64,000 bases of DNA, from contig CM059431.1 of NCBI GenBank assembly GCA_030390025.1, positions 148,306,001-148,370,000 on the forward strand. The letters are read 5' to 3'. The position numbers and the translations under genes are program-made. The notes beneath the pieces were generated by a model. It had not been told where the DNA came from, did not search any database, and saw nothing but the letters and a program-made list of their open reading frames with translations. The stretch is from Squalus acanthias. Its lineage: Eukaryota. Positions 1 to 61,961 of this stretch are shown in pieces (the first letter of the stretch is position 1; each line of letters opens with the position of its first letter).

Positions 1-1062
1 GTGGCTTGCTAGGCCATTACAGAGGGCAGCGAAGAGACAACGACATTGCTGTGGGTCTGGAGTCACATTATGGACACAATGGGCTGGATTTTGATACTGG
101 GGCGGATTGGGGTCGTGTCATCCGCATTTCGTGTTATCCAACCGACTGCAATTGGATGTGGGAGATTGATGCAATTTTCACCTATTTGGGCATTTGCGTT
201 CCAGCATGTGGGAACCCATGAAGCAATTAGTGTTTTCAGTCTGAAAGTCGCCTCTGATGATGTCATCATTGCTGCTGCATTGAAGGTCAGAGACTGCCTG
301 GCCTTTGCTGTGAGAGGACTTGGATGCACAATGAGCAGGAGAGAGCGAGAGAGAGAGAGAGAGAGAGATTGAGATTTTTTGCATCCAGGTCCTCTCACAG
401 CAAAGGCCAGGCAGCCTCCAAAGACCTTCAATGCAGCAGCATCAGAGGCAACTATCAGACCTAATACTACGACTACCTTCATCACATCTCCGTTGTAATA
501 GTGGACCTGTCGCTCATAGTCAGCTATCCAAATGTGCTCCCGCCAGTTTTCACAATCGTGGTTCAGAACAGGCATGCGTCACGCAGATCAAGGGTTGAAA
601 TCAGAAAGGCCTTTCAAAATGGCATTCTAGAGCCAATTTAGTGCTTGTTAAGGGCCTTAACAGCCTGTCCCATCTCTTAAAGGCGGGACGGAGTCGGGAC
701 CAGCAGACACGATTTAATGAAAATTGCATGGAGGCGGGATGGAGGCGGACTTGTGCCCGCCCGCCCGCCAGTTTTCGCAATTTTAACCCCCCACACGCCT
801 CCAAACCCGCCTCCACGGGTCAATGAAAATCCAGCCCAATATATAAGGACGGCAGATTTCCTTCCCTAAAAGACAATAGTGAACCAGATGTGTTTTTACG
901 ACAATCCGGTAGTTTCATGGTTACCATTACTGACGCAATCTTTTTTCAAGAATTGTTTGATGAAATGAATTTAACTTCCCCAGCTGGTGGGATTTGAACT
1001 CAGGATTAATCGTCCCGGCATCTTATTTACTTGTCGAGCAACATAACCACTATGTAACTGTA
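1..1062 (-). mobile_element. tRNA-derived SINE (copy 1 of 4), interrupted by the MITE at 81-837
   Basis: Reverse complement of the SINE at 11918-12322; minus strand has an A-box-like TAGTGGTTATG and a B-box-like GAGTTCAAATCCC near 990-1050. Confidence 0.7.
81..837. mobile_element. Non-autonomous DNA transposon (MITE), PIF/Harbinger-like
   Basis: Perfect 12-bp TIRs GGGCTGGATTTT (81-92) and AAAATCCAGCCC (826-837), AAT target duplication (78-80, 838-840), and absent at the same site in the paralogous SINE copies near 12135 and 25430. Confidence 0.85.
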
Positions 1063-1509
1063 GCCTTCAAATATATCGCTGTTCATTCATCGGCACTTGG
1101 TCAAAAGCCTGAAATTCCTTCTATAACTGTAACACCTTCAGCACACGGACTGCAGCGGCTCAAGATGAAGGCCCAGCATTTGCTCATGGGTAACTCGGGA
1201 TGGGAATGTAATTCCGGTCTTGACAGCGTCACCCATATCCTGAGAACAAATAAATATAAATATTAAAATGGGATTAAAAAAACTGATTTTGAAATTCACT
1301 GATTGAAACCAGGCGAGGCCTGTGATCAGAGCGGGTCGTCATGGTCCGCCAAACAAATTGTCAACACAACTTGTCTCAACAATTCTATGGTTTTATGAAT
1401 GATACTGCTCACACTTTTCCAATTTCCCTATCCTTTCAAAAGGTGCTTGACAAAGTACCACCTATTACCAAAGTTGAAGCCCTTGGGATTAAAGTGGCAG
1501 TGGCAACAG

Positions 1510-2140: not shown

Positions 2141-4550
2141 ATTCCAACAAGAGAGAAGGGTAAGGGTAACAAAGCAAGGGCTCCTTGGATGACGAGGGAG
2201 ATAGAGAAGATGCTGAAACAAAAAAAGGAGGGTGCATGATGCATGTCAGGCGAATTCTTCAAGGGAGAACCATATCAAACACAATAAGTTGAGAGGATGA
2301 TATAAATACAATGGCCCAGAAATTCGGGTCGGAGGCTTCCCGCAGGTGCAAGCATAGCTGGTGCACTTACATAGCGTGCCTGCTGCTGTGCTGTTAAAAG
2401 TAGGCCTTGCAACTGCTTTTTCCACGTGCAGCTGATAGGGACTTACCCACACGAGAAACCTGTAAAAAAAGACGAAGTTCGATGCGTATGCGCTGCCTCT
2501 CCGGCGCTCGTGTTTGACGTGTGAACCCCTTCCTTCGAGGGAACGGAAGTTCCGGTTTCCCGCGTATGCGCAGTGCATGCGCAAAACCGGCACTTTCGTT
2601 GGCCTTACGGGTGTGTGCACATCGCGTACTCACCCGTGGAGACCCGAAATTTCCGGGTCAATAAGTGAAGATGGAAATAAGATTGGTAAACAGAGAATAT
2701 GAGAGTAGATTGGCGTTTAACATAAAAGGGAAGCCAAAAATCTTCTGCTGGCATGTAAACAGTAAGCGGGTAATTAGAGGCGGGGTGGGGCCTATTAGGG
2801 ACAAAGAACGTGATATATGCTTAGAGTTGAAGGGCAATGCTAGAATACACAATGAGTACTTTGTATTGGTGTTTACTAATTTTGTGCATGCTGACAAAAT
2901 ATCGGTAGAAGTGGAAAAGGTAGAAGCAATGGAAGGGCTGATAATTGACAGACAGGATGTACTAGAAAGGCTGGGTATGCTTAGAGTTTATAGGTCGCCT
3001 AGTCCAGATGGCTTGCATCCCAGCTTACTAAGTGAATGGGGGGAGGAGCTTGACATAATTTTCCAATCTTCCCGAGATGCGGGGGAGGTGTCTGAGAATT
3101 GGAAACTGGCAAATGTGACACCATTGTTCAAGAAAAGGTGTAAGGACAATCCAAGTAACTACAGGCTGCTCAGTTTAATATCAGTGGTGGGTAATGTTTT
3201 AGAAAGAATAATCAAGGAAAAAAGTAATGTGCACTTGGCTAGGTTTAAGCTAATTAAGAAGACCCAACACGGATTTGTAAAAGACAGTTAAAGTTTGATT
3301 AATCCAATTGAATTTCTTGATGAAGTAACAGGGAGGAATGATGAAGGGAATAAAATGGATGTTGTCAACATGGATTTTAGGAAGGCGTTTGACAAAGTAC
3401 CACATAGAAGGCTGGTTAACAAAATTGAGGCTCATGGAATAGGTGGGTCAGTGGCAGCTTGGATAAGGAATTGGCTTAAGGACAGAAAACAGCGAGTTGT
3501 GGTAAATGGCTGTTTTTCAGAATGGAGGATGGTAGACAGTGGTGTCCCCCAAGAGTCACTGCTGGGGCCACAGCTTTTTTGATATATATAAATTAATTGG
3601 ATATTGGAATACAGAGTATAATTTCTAAATTTTCGTATGACACCAAACTTGGCAAACAGTGAGGATGATACCAATCGATTGCAACAGGACATAGAAATGC
3701 TAGCAGAATGGGCAGACAAGTGGCAGATGGAGTTTAATACAGAGAAGTATGAGGTGATGCATTTTGGCAGAGGAACAGGGAGAGGCAATATTCACATAAT
3801 GGCATAGTTTTAATGAGTATGCAGGTACAGAGGGACCTGGGAGTTAATGAGCATAGGTCCCTGAAGGTGGCAGCAGATATTGAGAGAGTGGTTTGCAAAG
3901 CATTTGGGAACTTGGGCTACATAAATAGAGGTATTGAGTAGAAAAGTAGAGAAGTTATGCTGAAACTTTATAAAGTGCTGGATAGGAAACAACTGCAGTA
4001 TTGCATCAATATCTGTTTGCCACCCTATAGGAAGGATGTGAAGACCTTGAGAGGGCGCAGAGGAGATTTGCCAGAATGGTTCCGGGAATATGGGATCTTA
4101 GCTACAAGGACAGGTTGGAGAAGCTGGATTTATTGTCATGAGAGCAAAGGAGGTAGAGGGGTGATTTGATAGATGTGTACAATATTATGACGTGTTTGGA
4201 TAGGCTAGACAGAGATACACTGTTCCCACTAGTTGATGGTACAAGAACTATGGCACGCAGATTTAATGTTTTGGGCAAGAGATACAGGGGGGGATATGAG
4301 AACAAACTTTTTTATGCAGCGAGTGGTGAAGACCTAGAACTCGCTGCTGACAGAAGTGGTGGAAGTGGAGGCACTCAATGTTTTCAAGGGGAGACTGGAT
4401 AGGCACTTGAGGGAAATACATTTGCAGGGCTACGGGGATAGAGAGGGGGGATGGGGCTGACTGGATTGCTCTACAGAGAGCCGGCACCGAGTCGATGGGC
4501 CGAATGGCCACCTTTTGTGCTATTATGACACTATGACACTATGACTCTAT
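2141..4550 (+). mobile_element. 5'-truncated, decayed CR1 LINE inserted in the minisatellite
   Basis: ORF2 fragments WKLANVTPLFKK, NYRLLSL, DFRKAFDKVPH, SGVPQES; 3' tail GATGGGCCGAATGGCC followed by (CTATGACA)n. Confidence 0.9.
2313..2659. mobile_element. MITE, PIF/Harbinger-like, nested in CR1
   Basis: Imperfect TIRs GGCCCAGAAATTCGGGTC / GACCCGAAATTTCCGGGTC; AAT duplication at 2310-2312 and 2660-2662; CpG-rich; shares the GCGCAGTGCATGC motif with the elements at 31153 and 56760. Confidence 0.8.
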
Positions 4551-4850
4551 ATCAGTGTTACAGTGAGGGGTGTGGAATATATCCGTGTTACAGTGAGGAG
4601 TGTGGGGTACATCAGTGTTACAGTGAGGAGTGTGGGGTACAAACGTCTGCTACAGTAAGGGATGTGAGGTATATCAGAGTGCTACAGTGATGGATGTGGG
4701 TTATATCAGTGTTACAGTTTGGGTGTGTGGTATATCAGATTGTTACATTTTGGATGTGAGGAAGGTCAGAGTGTTACAGTGAGAAGTGTAGGGGATATCA
4801 GAGTGATAAAGTGATTGGCGTGGGTTATATCAGATTGTTACAGTGAAGGA
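4550..4850 (+). repeat. ~32-bp minisatellite, continuation
   Basis: Same unit as 1510-2140. Confidence 0.9.
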
Positions 4851-4927
4851 AGTCCCTTTTTTGTGTTACAATAATACATCAGTATTGAGAATCTGAACTA
4901 TATAAAACGAAGGAATTATTCCGGCCA

Positions 4928-6184
4928 ATGATCGGGATTCTGCTATTCCACATCAGCCTATTCGGCATATTGGACCAACACTATTTTCCCTATAATAGGT
5001 CGATTGCATTTGCCCTGGAGACACCACCGCGGGACGCCACTGGAAATATTACCCTCCAGTACATCAAGGGTGATTGTGAAACCGCGTGTTCAGCGACAGT
5101 ATGGGTTACCACTGTTGAGGTCCAGGAAGGGAGGGAGGGTATGCATAAAATGCAAAGAACGCCGCACCGGGCCAAGGGTGTGGTTCTTACAAGCAGGACC
5201 AAGTGACCATTCAAGGTACTATCAGATAGGGATCCCTCGGGGGAAAGGAGGAAGCTCGACCCAATCCCGAGCAGCGGCAGACACTCTGTTATGTTGTCCA
5301 CAGTGGTGGCAGGAGCATGAGGGAATCTATGGATGCATAAAACCTTCGGGGACGCAGAGCCGATATGTGGAGCTCCCGTCCACTGGATAGGCGGGAAAAG
5401 TATCCAAGCGAATGGAACAGATGACAGGGGTCCCTACCGCTGTTTCGTGGACAGGGAGGGAAGGCCATGTAGGGGTTCGAAGGGTTGCTCACATTATCAT
5501 ATGCAGGAATATAAAAACGGAATAATACACACGGTGGAATTGAAATCCATCCTAAACTCCCCACCCCACCCGTACGAATAGATCACAACCCCGGGAATAA
5601 CAAAAGGAAACCCGGGTTGTCTGTCCCAAACACACCCCGGGACCGGCAAATAGGTTAGAGCTAATCCCAACTCGGATGATTTTGTACCATGCTCTGCATC
5701 ATGAAGTGATACCTGAAATGTTAAATCTGACCGAGGTGGGACTGCCAAACTGGTGCAAACCAGAAACAACGCTGTGATATGGGAGAATGATGCGGGAATT
5801 AATCGAGGGATTTTGGGAAAGGGCCAACACAACCCTGGTGGAATTGGAATTAGAGCCATTATATCGCAAGGACTCAGGGGATGGTAATGGATTTAGCAAT
5901 AACTTTGGGGAAAAGAGTACCGAGATCATTGAAGAAAATTGTGTTGGTTACGGGGTTACAGGGGACCATTTCAGAACACCACGGGGCCTGATAAATGATG
6001 CAGCCATTGCTTTTAATACCGGAACCTCCCTCGTTAATAGCCTTGATTTGGCTCATTTGGATCAATCCGTAAAGGCAGTTAGAAATCGTTTAAGGGAAAT
6101 TTTGAATAAAATGAATGGTCTGTAACAGCAGGAATTAAAGGAGGACCAAATTACGACCATTTATCGACAGGATATTGTATGGGG
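4928..6184 (+). pseudogene. Decayed viral envelope glycoprotein gene 'env-1': signal peptide, putative Ig-like domain, furin site, start of fusion subunit
   Basis: Hydrophobic N-terminus MIGILLFHISLFGIL, sequons NRS/NIT/NLT/NTT, and RTPR|GLINDAAIAFNTGTSLVNSLD plus a heptad region that aligns by eye with env-2 (RQRR|DTWNDVFTAYSTGSSVINSLD). Several frameshifts and stops; cut off by the LTR at 6185. Confidence 0.7.
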
Positions 6185-7316: not shown

Positions 7317-7597
7317 TCCCCCACTTTGATACTAAACCTGAATTAGTATAATTAACTGGTGACCAAAATTTCTGATCCCCGAAAACCAACGTCCCCCTGT
7401 ATTACCTAAACTAAAAACCCAAACATACACTCCCCTTTTAAAAGTGGTGTTTCAGGTACATACAGGTAAGAATCAATCTTTATTTCACATCCAAGCACGG
7501 AGAGGGTCCGACACCCCTGCACAGCTTGGAAAACACATCATACACATCATAAAAATGACACAACACACACACACATTTTTTTATTAAAGGACAAAAT

Positions 7598-9072
7598 TCA
7601 AGGTTCGTTCCATCTCTGGCCATAGCCTTTATTTTGATGCTCTTCCCAAGTCCCTTCGTGTCTGGAACGGAACTCCCCGTCCCTTCCCCTGCACTTTGTA
7701 CACAGCAGGTAGAGAACTATCCCGAGCTGGCAGACCACCAAAAGATGGGAAGCAATCCTGATCCAGGAAGGCAATTCCATATTCTCGAAAATATCCCACC
7801 AGGGTGGAACTATTTTATCCAAAATCTCTGCCCCTATTTCAACTGTTTTCTGTTCCAGGGAGTAGAAATGTTTTTGTGATATCTCGACAGCTTTAAGTAG
7901 AATGGTAAAATGTTCGGGTAGAGGGGGAATTTTAGATCCAAAATAAGTCACATACTTTTGCAGGTTGGTGATGTTTTCTGTTTCAGTGAGGTGAACAGAG
8001 GAGGGTTCAGGATTGGGTCAATCCGTTCTTCGGCCAGTTAAACTTCTGCCTCTGGTTTAAAGCAGAAACTTCTGTCACATACCGGACACCAGAAGTGTCC
8101 ATGCTGGTTGTGGGACACACCTGTGGTGACACAATATATCCCACCCCATATATATGCTAACTGTGGGGAAACATGGCCGTGTACCATCACCTCCATGGTA
8201 CAGTTTATAGGTCGTGCGCCAGCGGCTTTAAACCCGCACTGTGGTTTAGAATAGGCGTTCAAGTGCTGGGGACACAGTGTTATGTGTGAACCCCGGCCCC
8301 GGCACCCGGAGAGGTCAGTACCTGTCATGGCGTGCTCCCACTTTATGTCATAAGGTGGGACCGCTGTAAAACGGATGTGTGCACCCCCTTGAATGACTCC
8401 AATGTTCTCCACCCTGTATACCGTTACGGGTCGGGCTGTCCCACTCATGACCGGCATTCTCACTACTATCCCCATGATAGTGTGGTTGGAACGCCCACAA
8501 TCTATTGGGATAGTGTCGGCTTCAGAGGCTAGACGAAAGTGGCATGGGCTCAGCGAATTACTAAACGGGTGGAGGGCTGCGAGGTGCTTGTTGCTGATCC
8601 AGGAGGAGACTAAACCTTGCTTTAAATCCTCCAGGTTGCTACGGCCCTAGCCCAGCAACCATGCCCCGTACAGCACACACACCTCATTCTGTGCAGCCTG
8701 ATCCGATGCATTCCTATCGTCCCGTATGAGTGCATTTACTGTTTTGGCATGCCTTTCCAATTCTGCAATAATTTCCTTTAAATGAACCGTCATAGCTTGG
8801 TCCTCATGTAGCTCTGAGCCTACCACTGTGTTCCCATCCTTCAGGATCTTTCTTAACTGGGTTTTTAAACCATTTATCTGTGTCTGTAATTCCATGTCAT
8901 CCAGGCTATTTATGACAGAGGACCCTGTACTATAGGCAGTGAAAACATCATTCCAGGTATCCCTTCTTTGTCTACCCGTGCCCATAGGATTCTCAGGGTG
9001 TATTCTTTTACAGGAACAGAGCAACGTCACCCTGTTAGGAATGGTATAGTATTAACCCATTCTGCCCGATAC
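7598..9072 (-). pseudogene. Decayed viral envelope gene 'env-2' (fusion subunit), F-protein-like
   Basis: Consecutive in-frame ORFs 8647-9030, 8038-8475 and 7598-7951: furin site RQRR, heptad repeat, Cys-rich region, Trp-rich membrane-proximal segment, TM (IASHLLVVCQLGIVLYLLC) and short tail. In-frame stops near 8648 and 8038; 5' part replaced by CR1. Confidence 0.8.
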
Positions 9073-9752
9073 TGATGATATAAAACTAGGTGAGACAGTA
9101 ATCTGTGAGGAGAAAACAAAGAGTCTGTAAAGGGATATAGATAGACAAAGTGAGTGGGCAGTAAGTTGGCAGATGGAGTATAATGTAGGGAAATGTGACG
9201 TTATTCACTTTGGTAGGTAGAATAGAAAAACCGAATTTATTTTAAATGGTGAGAAGCTTTCAAATGTTGATGTTCAGAGAGATTTGGGTTTCCTCGTGCA
9301 AGAAACACAGAAATCCAGCATGCAAGTACAGGAAGCAATAAGGAAGGCAAATGGCATGTTGTCCTTTATTGCAAGGGGGTTGCAGAATCAGTGTAAGGAA
9401 GTCTTGCTACAATTGTACAGGGCCTTGGTGAGACCACACCTGGAGTACTGTGTACAGTTTTGGGCTCCTTATCTAAGGAAGAATATACTTGCCTTGGAGG
9501 CGGTGCAACAAAGGTTCACTAGATTGATTCCTGGGATGAGAGGGCTGTCCTATGATGAGAGATTGTGTAGAATGTGCCGATACTTTCTGGAGTTTAGAAG
9601 AATGAGAGGTGATCTCATTGAAACATACAAGATTCTGAAGGGGATTGACAGGTTAAATGCTGAGAGGTTGTTTCCCCTGGCTGGAGTGTCTAGAACTAGG
9701 GGACATATCTCCGGATATGGGGTAGGCCATTTAGGACTGAGATGAGGAGGAA
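9073..9752 (+). mobile_element. CR1 LINE ORF2 C-terminal fragment
   Basis: LYRALVRPHLEYCVQFWAP, EFRRMRGDLIETYKI; mirrored at 59843-60525. Confidence 0.9.
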
Positions 9753-9754
9753 TT

Positions 9755-11460
9755 GATATACCCCACACCACTCACTGTAACACTCTGATATACCCAACAC
9801 CCCTCACTCTAACACTCTGATATACCCCACACCCCTCACTGTAACACACTGATATACCCCACACCCCTCACTGTAACACTCTGATATACCCACACCCCTC
9901 ACTTTAACACTCTGATATACTCCACACCCCTCACTCTAACACTCTGATATACCCAACACCCCTCACTCTAATACTCTGATATACCCCACTCCCCTCACTG
10001 TAACACTCAGATCCATGCCACACTCTGGTCTGTTACTATCCAAAACCATTCACTATAATACTGAAATATCTCGCACCACTCACTGTAACACACTCTGATA
10101 TAATCCACACCCCTCACTGAATCGCACTCTGATATTCTCCACACCCTTCAATGTAACACTATGATATACCCCACACTCCTCACTGTAACACCCTGATATA
10201 CCCCACACCTCTCACTTTAACTCTCTTATATACCGCAAACCCCTCACTGTAACACTCTGATATAAAGGCCACACCCCTCACTGTAACACTCTGATATACA
10301 CCACACACCTCACTGTAACATTCTGATATAGACCACACCCCTCACTGTAACACTCTGATATACAACACACCCCTCACTTTAACCCTCCTATATACCGCAA
10401 ACCCCGCACTGTAACACTCTGATATAAAGGCCACACCCCTCACTTCAACAATCTGATGTGAGTCACACCCCTCACTGTAACACTCTGATTTACACCACAC
10501 ACCTCACTGAAACACACTGATATACCCCACACATCTCACTGTAACAATCTGATATGCCCCACACCCCTTACTGAAACAGTCGGATATACCCCACACCCCT
10601 CACTATAACACTCGGATATAAGTCACAACTCTCACTATAACCCTCTGATATACCCTGCACCTTTCACTCTAACTCTCTTATATACCCCAGAACCCTCACT
10701 ATAACAATATGATATACCCCACACTCCTCACTTTAACAATCGGATATACCCCACATTTCTCGCTGTAAAACACTGATAAACTGCACAGCCCTCACTCTAA
10801 CACTGATATACCCCATAACCCTCACTGTAGTCCTCTGATATACTCCAAACCTCTCACTCTAACTCTCTGACATACCCCACTTCCCTCCCTGTAACACTCT
10901 GATATAACCACACTACTCACTCTAACACTGATATAAAACCAGATCGCGCACGTAAACGTCTGATATACCCCACACACCTCACTGCAACACTCTGATATAC
11001 CCCACACCATTCACTGTAATCCTTTGATATAACCCGCACATCTCACTCTAAATCTCTGATATAGCCCCCACCGCTCAACTTAACACTCTGATACATGCCA
11101 TACTCTGGAGTGTTACTGTCCACACCAGTCACTGTAATACTGATATACCCCACATCCCTCACTGTGACATCTGATACATGCCATGCTCTGGACTGTTACT
11201 CTCCACACCACAAACTGTAATACTGATATACCCCACACCCCTCACTCTAACACTCTGATATACCCCACACTCCTCACTGTAGCACTCTGATACATGCCAC
11301 ACTCTGGACTGTTACTCTCCACACCACTCACTGTAATACTGATATATCTCACATCCCTCACTGTGACATCTGATACATGCCACACTCTGGACTGTTACTC
11401 TCCACACCACTCACTGTAATACTGATATATCTCACATCCCTCACTGTAATACTGATATAC
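9755..11460 (-). repeat. ~32-bp minisatellite (reverse orientation)
   Basis: (TGATATACCCCACACCCCTCACTGTAACACTC)n. Confidence 0.92.
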
Positions 11461-11917
11461 CTCGCACTTTTGCCATTGCCACTTTAATCCCATGGGATTC
11501 AACTTTGGTAATATATGGTACTTTATCAAGCACCTTTTGATAGGAGAGGGAAATTGAGAAAGTGAGTGCAGTATCATTCATAAAACCATAGAATTAGTGA
11601 GACAAGTTGTGTTGACAATTTGTTTGGCGGACCATGACGACCCGCTCTGATCACAGGCCTCGCCTGGTTTCAATCAGTGAATTTAAAAATCAGTGATTTT
11701 AATCCCATTTTATTATTTATATTTATTTGTTCTCAGGATATGGGTGACGCTGTCAAGACCGGAATTACATTCCCATCCCTAGTTACCCATGAGCAAATGC
11801 TGGGCCTTCATCTTGAGCCGCTGAAGTCCGTGTGGTGAAGGTGTTACTGTTACGGAAGGAATGTCATGCTTTTGACACAGTCCCGATGAAGGTACGGCGA
11901 TATATTTGAAAGCTACA

Positions 11918-12322
11918 TTAGCATAGTGGTTATGTTGCTGAACAAGTAAATAAGATGCCGGGACGAATAATCCTGAGTTGAAATCCCACCAGCTGGGGAA
12001 TTTAAATACAATTCAGCAAACAAATCTGGAAAAAAGATTGCGTCAGTATTGGTAACCATGAAACTACCGGATTGTCGTAAAAACACATCTGGTTCACGAT
12101 TGTCCTTTACGGAAGGAAATCTGCCGTCCTTATATATTGTGTACGAAATGTGACTCCAGACTCACAGCAATGTCGTTGTCTCTTCGCTGCCCTCTGAAAT
12201 GGCCGTACAAGCCATTCAGTTGTATAAGGTGGCTCACCACCACCTTCTCCAGGACAATTATGGATGGACAATAAATGGTGGCCTTGCCAGCGACATCCAC
12301 ATCCCAAGAATGAATACAAAAT
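11918..12322 (+). mobile_element. tRNA-derived SINE (copy 2), uninterrupted
   Basis: TAGCATAGTGGTTATG ... GAGTTGAAATCCC head; 3' tail GGCCTTGCCAGCGACATCCACATCCC shared with the neighbouring LINE 3' end (e.g. 55435-55465). Confidence 0.7.
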
Positions 12323-60525: not shown

Positions 60526-61961
60526 TCGGGCAGAATGGGATAATACTATACCATTCCTAACAGGGTGGCGTTGCTCTGTTCCTGTAAAAGAATACACTCT
60601 GAGAACCCAATGACAAAGAAGGAGTGCCTGGAATGATGTTTTCACTGCCTATAGTTTCAGGGTCCTCTGTAATAAATAGCCTGGATGACATGGAATTGCA
60701 GACTCAGATAAATGGTTTAAAAACCCAGTTAAGAAAGATCCTGAAGGATGGGAACACAGTGGTAGGCTCAGAGCTACATGAGGACCAAGCTATGACGGTT
60801 CATTGAAAGGAAATTATTGCAGAATTGGAAAGGCATGCCAAAACAGTAAATGCACTCATACGGGAGGATAGGAATGCATCGGATCAGGCTGCACAGAATG
60901 AGGTGTGTGTGCTGTACGGGGCATGGTTACTGGGCGAGGACCGTAGCAACCTGGAGGATGTAAAGCAAGGTTTAGTCTCCTCCTGGATCAGCAACAAGCA
61001 CCTCGCAGCCCTCCACCCGTTTAGTAATTTGCTGAGCCCATGCCACTTTCGTCTAGCCTCTGAAGCCTACCCTGTCCCAATAGATTGTGGGCGTTCCAAT
61101 CACACTATCATGGTGATAGTAGTGAGAATGCCGGTCATGAGTGAGACAGGCCGACCCGTACCGATATACAGGGTGGAGAACATTGGAGTCATTCAAGGGG
61201 GTGCACACATCCGTTTTACAGCGGTCCCACCTTATGTCATAAAGTGGGAGCACGCCATGACAGGTACTATCCTCTCCGGGTGCCGGGGCCGGGGTTCACA
61301 CATAATACTGTCTCCCCAGCACTTGAACGCCTATTCTAAACCACAGTGTGGGTTCAAAGCTGCTGGCACACGACCTATGAACTGTACCATGGAGGTGATG
61401 GCACAAGGCCATGTTTCCCCACAGGTAGCATATATAGGGGGTGGGATATATTGTGTCACCACAGGTGCGTTCCACTACCAGCATGGACACTTCTGGTGTC
61501 CGGTAAGTGACAGCAGTTTCTGCTTTAAACCAGAGGCAGATGTTTAAGTGGCCCAAGAACGGATTGTCCCCATTCCTGAACCCTCCTCTGTTCACCTCAC
61601 TGTAACAGAAAACATCACCAACCTGCAAAAGTATGCGACTTACTTTGGATATAAAATTCCCCCTTTACCCGAACATCTTACCATCCTACTTAAAGCTGTA
61701 GAGATTTCACAAAAACATTTCTACACCCTGGAACAGAAAACAGTTGAAATAGGGGCAGAGATTTTGGATAAAATAGTTCCACCCTGGTGGGATATTTTCG
61801 AGAATATAGAATTGCCTTCCTGGATCAGGATGGTTCCCCATCTTTTGGTGGTCTGCCAGCTCGGGATAATTATCTACCTGCTGTGTACAAAGTGCAGGGG
61901 AAGGGACGGGGAGCTCCGTTCCAAACACGAAGGGACTTGGGAAGAGCATCAAAATAAAGGC
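60526..61961 (+). pseudogene. Second copy of decayed env-2
   Basis: ORFs 60624-60806, 60825-61547 and 61548 onward are highly similar to 7598-9030; furin region disrupted; 3' end and LTR lost. Confidence 0.8.

Follow-up and report, generated by a model that had tools for sequence, protein, structure and literature searches.

The closest described systems to the element considered here are the lokiretroviruses, which have an F-like envelope protein (Env) and are likened to it by Env, gene order and dual RNase H. In the main text of their description, the Env model comprises a signal peptide, an R-x-K/R-R site, a fusion peptide, a coiled coil and a transmembrane (TM) segment, with no N-terminal domain named, and the protein resembles the fusion (F) protein of paramyxoviruses and pneumoviruses (PF00523 at E 2.2e-7); pol has a dual RNase H, and the five host classes given there include amphibians and a lobe-finned fish and do not include cartilaginous fishes (Wang and Han, 2020; PMC7947760). 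The F-type Env of errantiviruses and baculoviruses belongs to invertebrate Ty3/gypsy elements, and no homologous vertebrate elements were found according to the available part of a recent preprint (Chary and Hayashi, 10.1101/2023.10.26.564294). In the current study, we describe an env fragment, env-1, at positions 4928-6184 (forward strand) of a 64,000-nucleotide stretch of the Squalus acanthias genome (assembly GCA_030390025.1, contig CM059431.1, positions 148,306,001 to 148,370,000; hereafter the window, with positions counted from its first letter). It is probably the decayed remnant of a multi-copy element resembling an endogenous retrovirus, whose intact protein would be an F-type fusogen with an N-terminal immunoglobulin (Ig)-like head, a head that may bind the receptor.

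Two further fusion systems frame the comparison. In the F protein of paramyxoviruses and pneumoviruses, a short F2 segment follows the signal peptide directly, and attachment depends on a separate protein. In gammaretroviruses, the receptor-binding domain of the surface subunit is an N-terminal beta-sandwich head whose variable loops determine which receptor is used, and it sits on a furin-cleaved class I fusion protein; this domain is not recognizable by sequence as a V-type Ig domain, and the fusion subunit is of the retroviral TM type. The window family likewise places an N-terminal head with variable loops on a furin-cleaved class I fusogen, which here is of the F type. It resembles the lokiretroviruses in that a long-terminal-repeat (LTR) element of retroviral kind carries an env with signal peptide, basic site, fusion peptide, coiled coil and TM segment, in that gag, pol and env are accompanied by a dual RNase H (with env downstream of integrase in the window family), in the similarity of Env to the F proteins of Mononegavirales (here by fold, with a sub-threshold Pfam score), and in the occurrence of relatives in amphibians and in a lobe-finned fish, the coelacanth. 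It differs in the strength of the PF00523 match (best E 0.036 here) and in the Ig-like head and cartilaginous-fish hosts, neither of which is in the main text of the lokiretrovirus description (PMC7947760). With the errantiviruses it shares an F-like fusogen on an LTR retroelement, whereas those elements are invertebrate Ty3/gypsy, going by the same part of the preprint (10.1101/2023.10.26.564294).

The window copy is the broken 5' third of the env of a dispersed LTR-retroelement family, with env-like peptides in three reading frames (Table 1). A signal-peptide-like start running to NITLQYIKGDCETACSATVWVTTVEVQEGRE lies in the first frame; GRVCIKC, RVWFLQ and DTLLCCPQWWQEHEGIYGC lie in the second; and PICGAPVHWIGGKSIQANG, CRGSKGCSHYH and IIHTVELK lie in the third, after which a downstream frame reads TRVVCPKHTPGP, NLTEVGLPNWCKPE and YGRMMRELIEGFWERA, then RTPR, GLINDAAIAFNTGTSLVNSLD and heptads. 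Of the F module, the window copy retains F2, cleavage site and fusion peptide together with the beginning of heptad 1 and nothing beyond, since family homology stops at about 6172-6184, before the body of F. There are three frame breaks (near 5125-5140, 5345-5360 and 5545-5600) and two in-frame stops (5775-5777 and 6123-6125), and the family start Met is replaced by a Thr codon at 4907-4909, with an internal Met at 4928. Because of the frameshifts, the stops, the lost start codon and the 3' truncation, this copy is a dead env fossil without function; satellite and a long interspersed nuclear element (LINE) fragment lie upstream of it, and gag-pol does not adjoin.

Table 1. Features of the two env fragments in the window (positions from the first letter of the window).
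Feature	Position	Strand	Basis or remark
Signal-peptide region, env-1	4907..4990	+	Paralogues begin MKELFWPMIGILLYLE; window reads TKELFRPMIGILLFH
Ig-like domain, N-terminal strands (to NITLQYIKGDCETACSATVWVTTVEVQEGRE), first frame	4991..5137	+	Natural read-through copies; frame breaks near 5125-5140
Ig-like core, B to F strands (GRVCIKC, RVWFLQ, DTLLCCPQWWQEHEGIYGC), second frame	5124..5360	+	Invariant C-strand Trp, Ig matches in register; break near 5345-5360
Cys-rich insertion, putative F-G loop (PICGAPVHWIGGKSIQANG, CRGSKGCSHYH), third frame	5342..5545	+	At least three insert variants
Putative G strand IIHTVELK, third frame	about 5522-5545	+	HxVELKV aligned with HVRLEAI of P0005
Pro-rich linker, degraded, holds third frame break	5546..5600	+	Frame comparison
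F2-like segment (TRVVCPKHTPGP, NLTEVGLPNWCKPE, YGRMMRELIEGFWERA), stop 5775-5777, ends RTPR (5973-5984)	5601..5984	+	pLDDT about 90 in homologous part of P0005 model
Fusion peptide (GLINDAAIAFNTGTSLVNSLDLA) and start of heptad repeat 1, stop 6123-6125	5985..6184	+	Family homology ends about 6172-6184
env-2, distantly related F-type env fragment	7688..9051	-	Identity to env-1 33-39%; relatives P0002, P0004
env-2 second copy, inverted orientation	60657..61898	+	Sequence comparison

An earlier sequence-only reading of this stretch had assembled an Ig signature across assumed frameshifts, and its landmarks were largely borne out. That reading placed the second GRVCIKC Cys (5151), the RVWFLQ Trp (5181) and the EHEGIYGC Cys (5334) exactly, the two Cys being 61 codons apart, and the frame join that it supposed at the GA-rich run near 5130 corresponds to a natural one, as paralogues read VTTYEVQE.RGICIKCK in a single frame. 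The downstream peptides VVCPKHTPGP, NLTEVGLPNWC and RTPR followed by GLINDAAIAFNTG (from 5985 onward) are present as described, and the homology asserted between this part and env-2 on the minus strand holds at 33-39% identity (E 2.8e-48). The peptide RHSVMLSTVV, which had been offered as the strand before EHEGIYGC, is an out-of-frame reading; the true strand is DTLLCCPQWW, in frame with EHEGIYGC.

The window env and its flanks match three further loci (L002-L004) at 94-98.7% identity across 4.2 kb, both flanks included. Such local multiplication might be taken to mean that the locus is a host gene domesticated from env. The copies carry shared flanks and are therefore segmental duplicates rather than new insertions, and three frameshifts, two stops, no family start codon and truncation before the F body do not suit a working gene, making domestication extremely improbable. 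The env fossil was instead duplicated together with its flanks.

Searches of the 3.7-Gb genome for paralogues gave 41 matches from 311 candidates at the DNA level (identity 79-100%) and 156 matches from 5266 candidates at the protein level. Paralogues with natural read-through were used in place of a corrected consensus, which was not built. In 16 fetched loci (L021, L022, L023, L024, L025, L027, L031, L032, L034, L035, L036, L037, L038 and L041, together with L028 and L030) the VTTYEVQE.RGICIKCK segment lies in one stop-free stretch. A 254-residue frame in L024, referred to as P0001, runs from the start Met to the linker, and in other loci, such as L039 and L041, a single frame takes in everything from the Ig-like core through the linker, F2-like segment and basic site to the fusion peptide and heptad 1; a related subfamily in this genome (L042) keeps that domain order across a 784-codon frame free of interruptions. 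Therefore, as the earlier reading had supposed, the Ig-like and fusion parts make up one protein. That they are instead two neighboring genes, or a local chimaera of a host Ig exon beside an env fragment, is suggested by the window itself, where they lie in different frames with breaks between; yet they are contiguous in the stop-free single frames of many dispersed paralogues, in the 784-codon frame and in full-length shark, skate and frog proteins, so that this possibility is scarcely credible.

The same family supplies the rest of the element. In 18 dispersed copies (10 kb each), integrase lies directly 5' of env, and env runs on for about 1.2 kb beyond the window break, where Cys-rich domains and a second heptad region are followed by a membrane anchor and a short tail (in L009-L026, env extends to the TM segment and tail). 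Pfam matches on element copies comprise RVT_1, RT_RNaseH followed by RNase_H in one frame, rve and the gag zinc knuckle zf-CCHC; in a single frame of L024, RT_RNaseH (E 2.9e-4, below its cut-off) precedes RNase_H (E 2e-12). Element copies of the kind that the sequence-only reading had proposed to look for, with pol upstream of env, do exist, with integrase adjoining env and with reverse transcriptase (RT), RNase H and the gag zinc knuckle present.

The nature of the fusion module is best seen in a shark homologue, P0005. An AlphaFold2 model of this protein (77-row alignment) reached a predicted local distance difference test score (pLDDT) of about 90 over residues 180-600, and a Foldseek search with the model returned 256 matches at E<=0.001 (best E 3.3e-10), the rows listed being all F proteins of paramyxoviruses or pneumoviruses (respiratory syncytial virus, human parainfluenza virus 3, Newcastle disease virus, human metapneumovirus, and Langya, Nipah and Hendra viruses). 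Because P0005 folds as F and is homologous to the window family (E 1.5e-72 against the family fusion-module profile), the F-type label proposed for that family is confirmed at the level of a predicted fold. Further likenesses to paramyxovirus and pneumovirus F are an F2-like segment with an N-glycosylation site and Cys, heptads 1 and 2, a TM segment, and a basic site that directly adjoins the hydrophobic fusion peptide and its heptad repeat, where the window has RTPR before GLINDAAIAFNTGTSLVNSLD and paralogues have R-T/R-R-R before GLINDAAT. The differences are about 230 extra residues here (Ig-like domain, insert and linker) before F2, and a sequence similarity that stays below the Pfam threshold. 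That last point weighs against the label: PF00523 did not reach its gathering score, the best match being E 0.036 (12.8 bits against a cut-off of 29.8) in the 784-codon frame of L042, and it matched none of 20 relatives scanned and none of seven natural family frames, while the fusion-module profile A2, compared with the sequences of solved structures, gave nine matches at E>=1 and no F protein.

For the N-terminal module, three domain profiles were searched against the sequences of solved structures: A6, built from the window family alone (9 rows); A7, which adds three elasmobranch relatives (12 rows); and A5 (14 rows), which adds amphibian P0011 and P0033, plus P0028. All four matches of A6 at E<=10 are Ig domains (E 0.081-0.6), namely those of smooth-muscle MLCK (0.081), CD8-alpha (0.12), Thy-1 (0.19) and contactin-6 (0.6), the first three aligned between the B-strand and F-strand Cys and contactin-6 only across the E-F motif. 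With A7, the CD8-alpha V domain was matched at E 4.3e-4 (profile positions 29-106 of 110), and E was at most 1 for 148 sequences; 59 of the best 60 listed are antibody, T-cell receptor or other Ig-superfamily sequences, including the V domain of the shark new antigen receptor, and the remaining one is a ribosomal protein (E 0.33). For A5 the lowest E was 1.3e-4 and 1197 sequences lay at E<=10, and its best 60 bear antibody, T-cell-receptor or Ig-superfamily names, bar one uninformative name. The best Ig matches of the N-domain are distant. As an Ig match had been expected and was obtained with all three profiles, besides the UniRef name of P0005 ("Ig-like domain-containing protein"), the proposal of an Ig-like domain survives on this point.

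The register of these matches is canonical. The C-strand Trp is the sole invariant column in A5 and A7, and at 5181 it lies 10 residues past the B-strand Cys, within the V/I-type range of 10-15; the B/F Cys pair is kept in most paralogues, and its 61-codon spacing fits the V/I-type range of about 55-75 residues. In the F strand, LLCWPRWWQEHEGIYGC aligns with LTLRQLRKEDSGIYYC of a T-cell receptor chain, with G-x-Y-x-C in register and the acidic residue off by one. Full-length relatives show, before an F2-like CP..GP..GL, the succession V.EG..v.i.C, W, a hydrophobic E strand, G.y.C and v.L.V, and Pfam gave V-set at E 0.045 in P0028 and Ig_3 at E 0.58 in P0039 at the homologous place, both sub-threshold. 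With Atlas features taken over residues 55-178 of P0005, Ig families make up ten of the ten best named clusters (scores 0.84-0.87, a lead only). A structure search with the low-confidence P0001 model had best rows (Z 3.0-3.9) that are mostly V-type Ig, among them polymeric Ig receptor, BTLA, TREM-1, CD28 and CD8; many of these rows span residues 70-225, so that HMVELKV is used as the last strand and residues 150-220 are skipped. Since the profile searches return Ig domains in canonical register, the Cys..Trp..G-x-Y-x-C pattern exceeds chance as judged by profile comparison, and the module is probably a V-type Ig-like domain, a reading supported by sequence profiles without a confident fold.

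Several results weigh against that reading. Across seven window pieces and seven natural family frames, Pfam matched neither Ig nor Fusion_gly at E<=10; the Ig gathering score was unreached in every protein scanned, and the Pfam evidence that had been sought is thus confined to the sub-threshold matches in relatives, the window family having none. A6 alone is not significant (best E 0.081). Structure prediction, likewise proposed beforehand, delivered the F core of P0005 and left the Ig-like domain at low confidence in both runs: mean pLDDT was 44 for P0001 (36 rows; 56-78 over residues 78-143), and residues 1-178 of P0005 were all below 50 (77 rows). With the P0001 model, the VIA structure search had none of 48161 chains at Z>=5 (best Z 3.9, weak), Atlas features of P0001 residues 44-152 gave no usable match, and the P0005 Atlas scores lie below that tool's 0.9 line. 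Word-based protein searches with P0001, at near and longer lengths, found nothing, and a whole-length N-terminal profile, A1, gave six weak matches to solved-structure sequences, five to complement C3 entries (E 0.82-1.2) and one to an antibody variable light chain (E 0.86). The amphibian N-domains were out of place in A3, an alignment of full-length relatives, which was hence not used for folding.

Such results would be expected if the module were a beta-rich domain of another or new fold, whose Cys...Trp...G-x-Y-x-C mimics Ig and whose matches reflect an antibody-rich structure bank. The missing Pfam match over threshold, the two low-confidence AlphaFold runs and a Z of at most 3.9, under the tool's own noise guide, all fit such a fold, and the extra Cys and the 70-residue insert are unusual for Ig. 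Against this, HMMER E-values allow for database size and the E of 4.3e-4 was obtained with a single-domain CD8-alpha chain over most of the profile; non-antibody Ig domains (telokin, Thy-1, contactin, DIP, FGFR2 and the shark new antigen receptor V) appear in the same register; and independent methods (sub-threshold Pfam Ig, the UniRef name and Atlas features) concur. We therefore regard a mimic as quite unlikely and retain the Ig-like reading at the strength given above.

The most variable part of the head is an insert of about 70 Cys-rich residues, running in the window family from the F-strand Cys to the putative G strand and lacking in P0005 and P0072. It takes at least three unrelated forms, whose similarity does not follow that of the core: compared with P0001, L034 is 74% identical in the core and 30% in the insert, L030 51% and 25%, and L039 58% and 80%. 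Because insert identity is decoupled from the core, this mosaicism would fit an exchangeable, receptor-determining loop. An alternative is that the Ig-like domain serves as an immune decoy or modulator, or shields the F head, with receptor contact elsewhere on F. Viral Ig-like domains often modulate immunity, and two relatives, P0034 and P0040, lack the module, so the F core can exist alone. These two, however, come from a 2-kb contig and a 482-residue model and may be incomplete; the domain heads the surface subunit, where retroviral receptor-binding domains usually lie; and subfamilies have exchanged the F-G insert without regard to the core, which is how receptor-determining regions behave. 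A role apart from the receptor is thus unlikely, though it deserves somewhat more weight than a mere mimic of the Ig fold, and receptor binding by the head is the function that we favor.

Among 1.84 billion representatives, the fusion-module profile picked out 53 relatives, with named sources in the sharks Chiloscyllium, Scyliorhinus and Mustelus, a sawshark, a skate, the coelacanth, and the frogs and toads Pelodytes, Bombina and Mantella (16 cluster members). Full-length relatives of 675-754 amino acids from sharks, a skate and frogs hold the Ig-like and fusion parts in one protein. In P0034 and P0040, the signal peptide is followed directly by the F2-like segment, with no N-domain between, and in P0008, P0025, P0027 and P0031 a different Cys-rich N-domain replaces the Ig-like one; on these sequences, the N-terminal module is variable across the clade, being Ig-like, Cys-rich or absent. 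The possibility that P0005 and P0072 represent a single-copy domesticated gene was rejected, as the P0005-like env lineage has 76 members among the matches listed in this genome (from 11727 candidates), mostly broken. A cluster around P0033 from one frog genome comprises 16 members, of which 15 are listed and 12 of these have 677 residues; this suggests many near-identical full-length env frames in that genome. Four public gene models (P0013, P0014, P0022 and P0026), in which env fragments of the clade are fused to unrelated host-like sequence, look like gene-model chimaeras.

On this most probable reading, the intact element is retrovirus-like, with gag (zinc knuckle), pol (RT, tether-like and canonical RNase H, integrase) and env. 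Its Env, in the order that natural frames show, begins with a signal peptide, the probable V-type Ig-like domain bearing a large variable Cys-rich F-G insertion, and a Pro-rich linker; continues with an F2-like segment that ends in a furin-type R-x-(R/K)-R site, then the fusion peptide and heptad repeat 1; and ends with beta-rich F domains, heptad repeat 2 and a membrane anchor. After cleavage, the head and F2 would form a surface subunit held to F1. The head, above all its exchangeable F-G insert, may be the receptor-binding part, and receptor engagement is predicted to set off heptad-1 extension and six-helix-bundle formation. Such a built-in head would free the F-type fusogen from a separate attachment protein of the paramyxovirus style.

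The second env fragment in the window, env-2, has a basic site (RQRR), fusion peptide, heptads, Cys-rich domains, heptad 2 and TM segment, and its 5' part is missing; its skate and sawshark relatives (P0004 and P0002) show that this lineage also carries an Ig-like head. It is cut on its 5' side by a LINE-type fragment. LINE-type RT fragments occur at 2665-4400, 9221-9745 and about ten more places in the window, and a satellite with units translating as CYSEGCGVYQ flanks the env fragments (1400-2160, 4529-4860 and 9800-11500). Segments around 964-1266 (forward) and 11779-12012 (reverse) are inverted copies of each other. Elsewhere in the genome, one locus has a 7.13-7.14-kb tandem unit of the element, within which a 24-bp tandem array lies between the env end and gag (L026:1111-1878), the overlying frame matching Pfam DUF4816 at E 5.8e-7; in L017 (oriented 7369-8500), env is broken by a long purine-rich simple repeat that reads RERGE in several frames.

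An Ig-like head on an F-type retroelement Env was not found described. The word "immunoglobulin" is absent from the main texts, as distinct from the supplements, of two lokiretrovirus papers (PMC7947760 and PMC9040795), and a literature search combining lokiretrovirus with Ig-like or immunoglobulin gave no report, supplements not being covered; such an Env domain is likewise unmentioned in the available part of the errantivirus preprint (10.1101/2023.10.26.564294), in the Troyka paper and in a 2026 review. The sole prior trace found is the automatic UniRef name of P0005. With the present family, F-type retrovirus-like elements appear to extend to sharks and skates. A wider reading, which we hold tentatively and rate somewhat below an even chance, is that a vertebrate retrovirus-like clade, with cartilaginous fishes among its hosts, put a V-type Ig-like domain before an F-type fusogen, with an exchangeable F-G cassette as receptor determinant, one polypeptide doing both attachment and fusion, and the N-terminal module swapped between lineages. 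Head variants and exchangeable loop cassettes would be useful for comparing receptor use and triggering and, if this reading is true, the clade would provide a natural series (Ig-like, Cys-rich and no head) in which the triggering of F-type fusion could be studied. An Env of the F type that carries its own Ig-like head would illustrate how a fusogen of this kind can become self-sufficient, and would show a retrovirus-like element assembling its surface subunit from a modular, possibly host-derived, domain.

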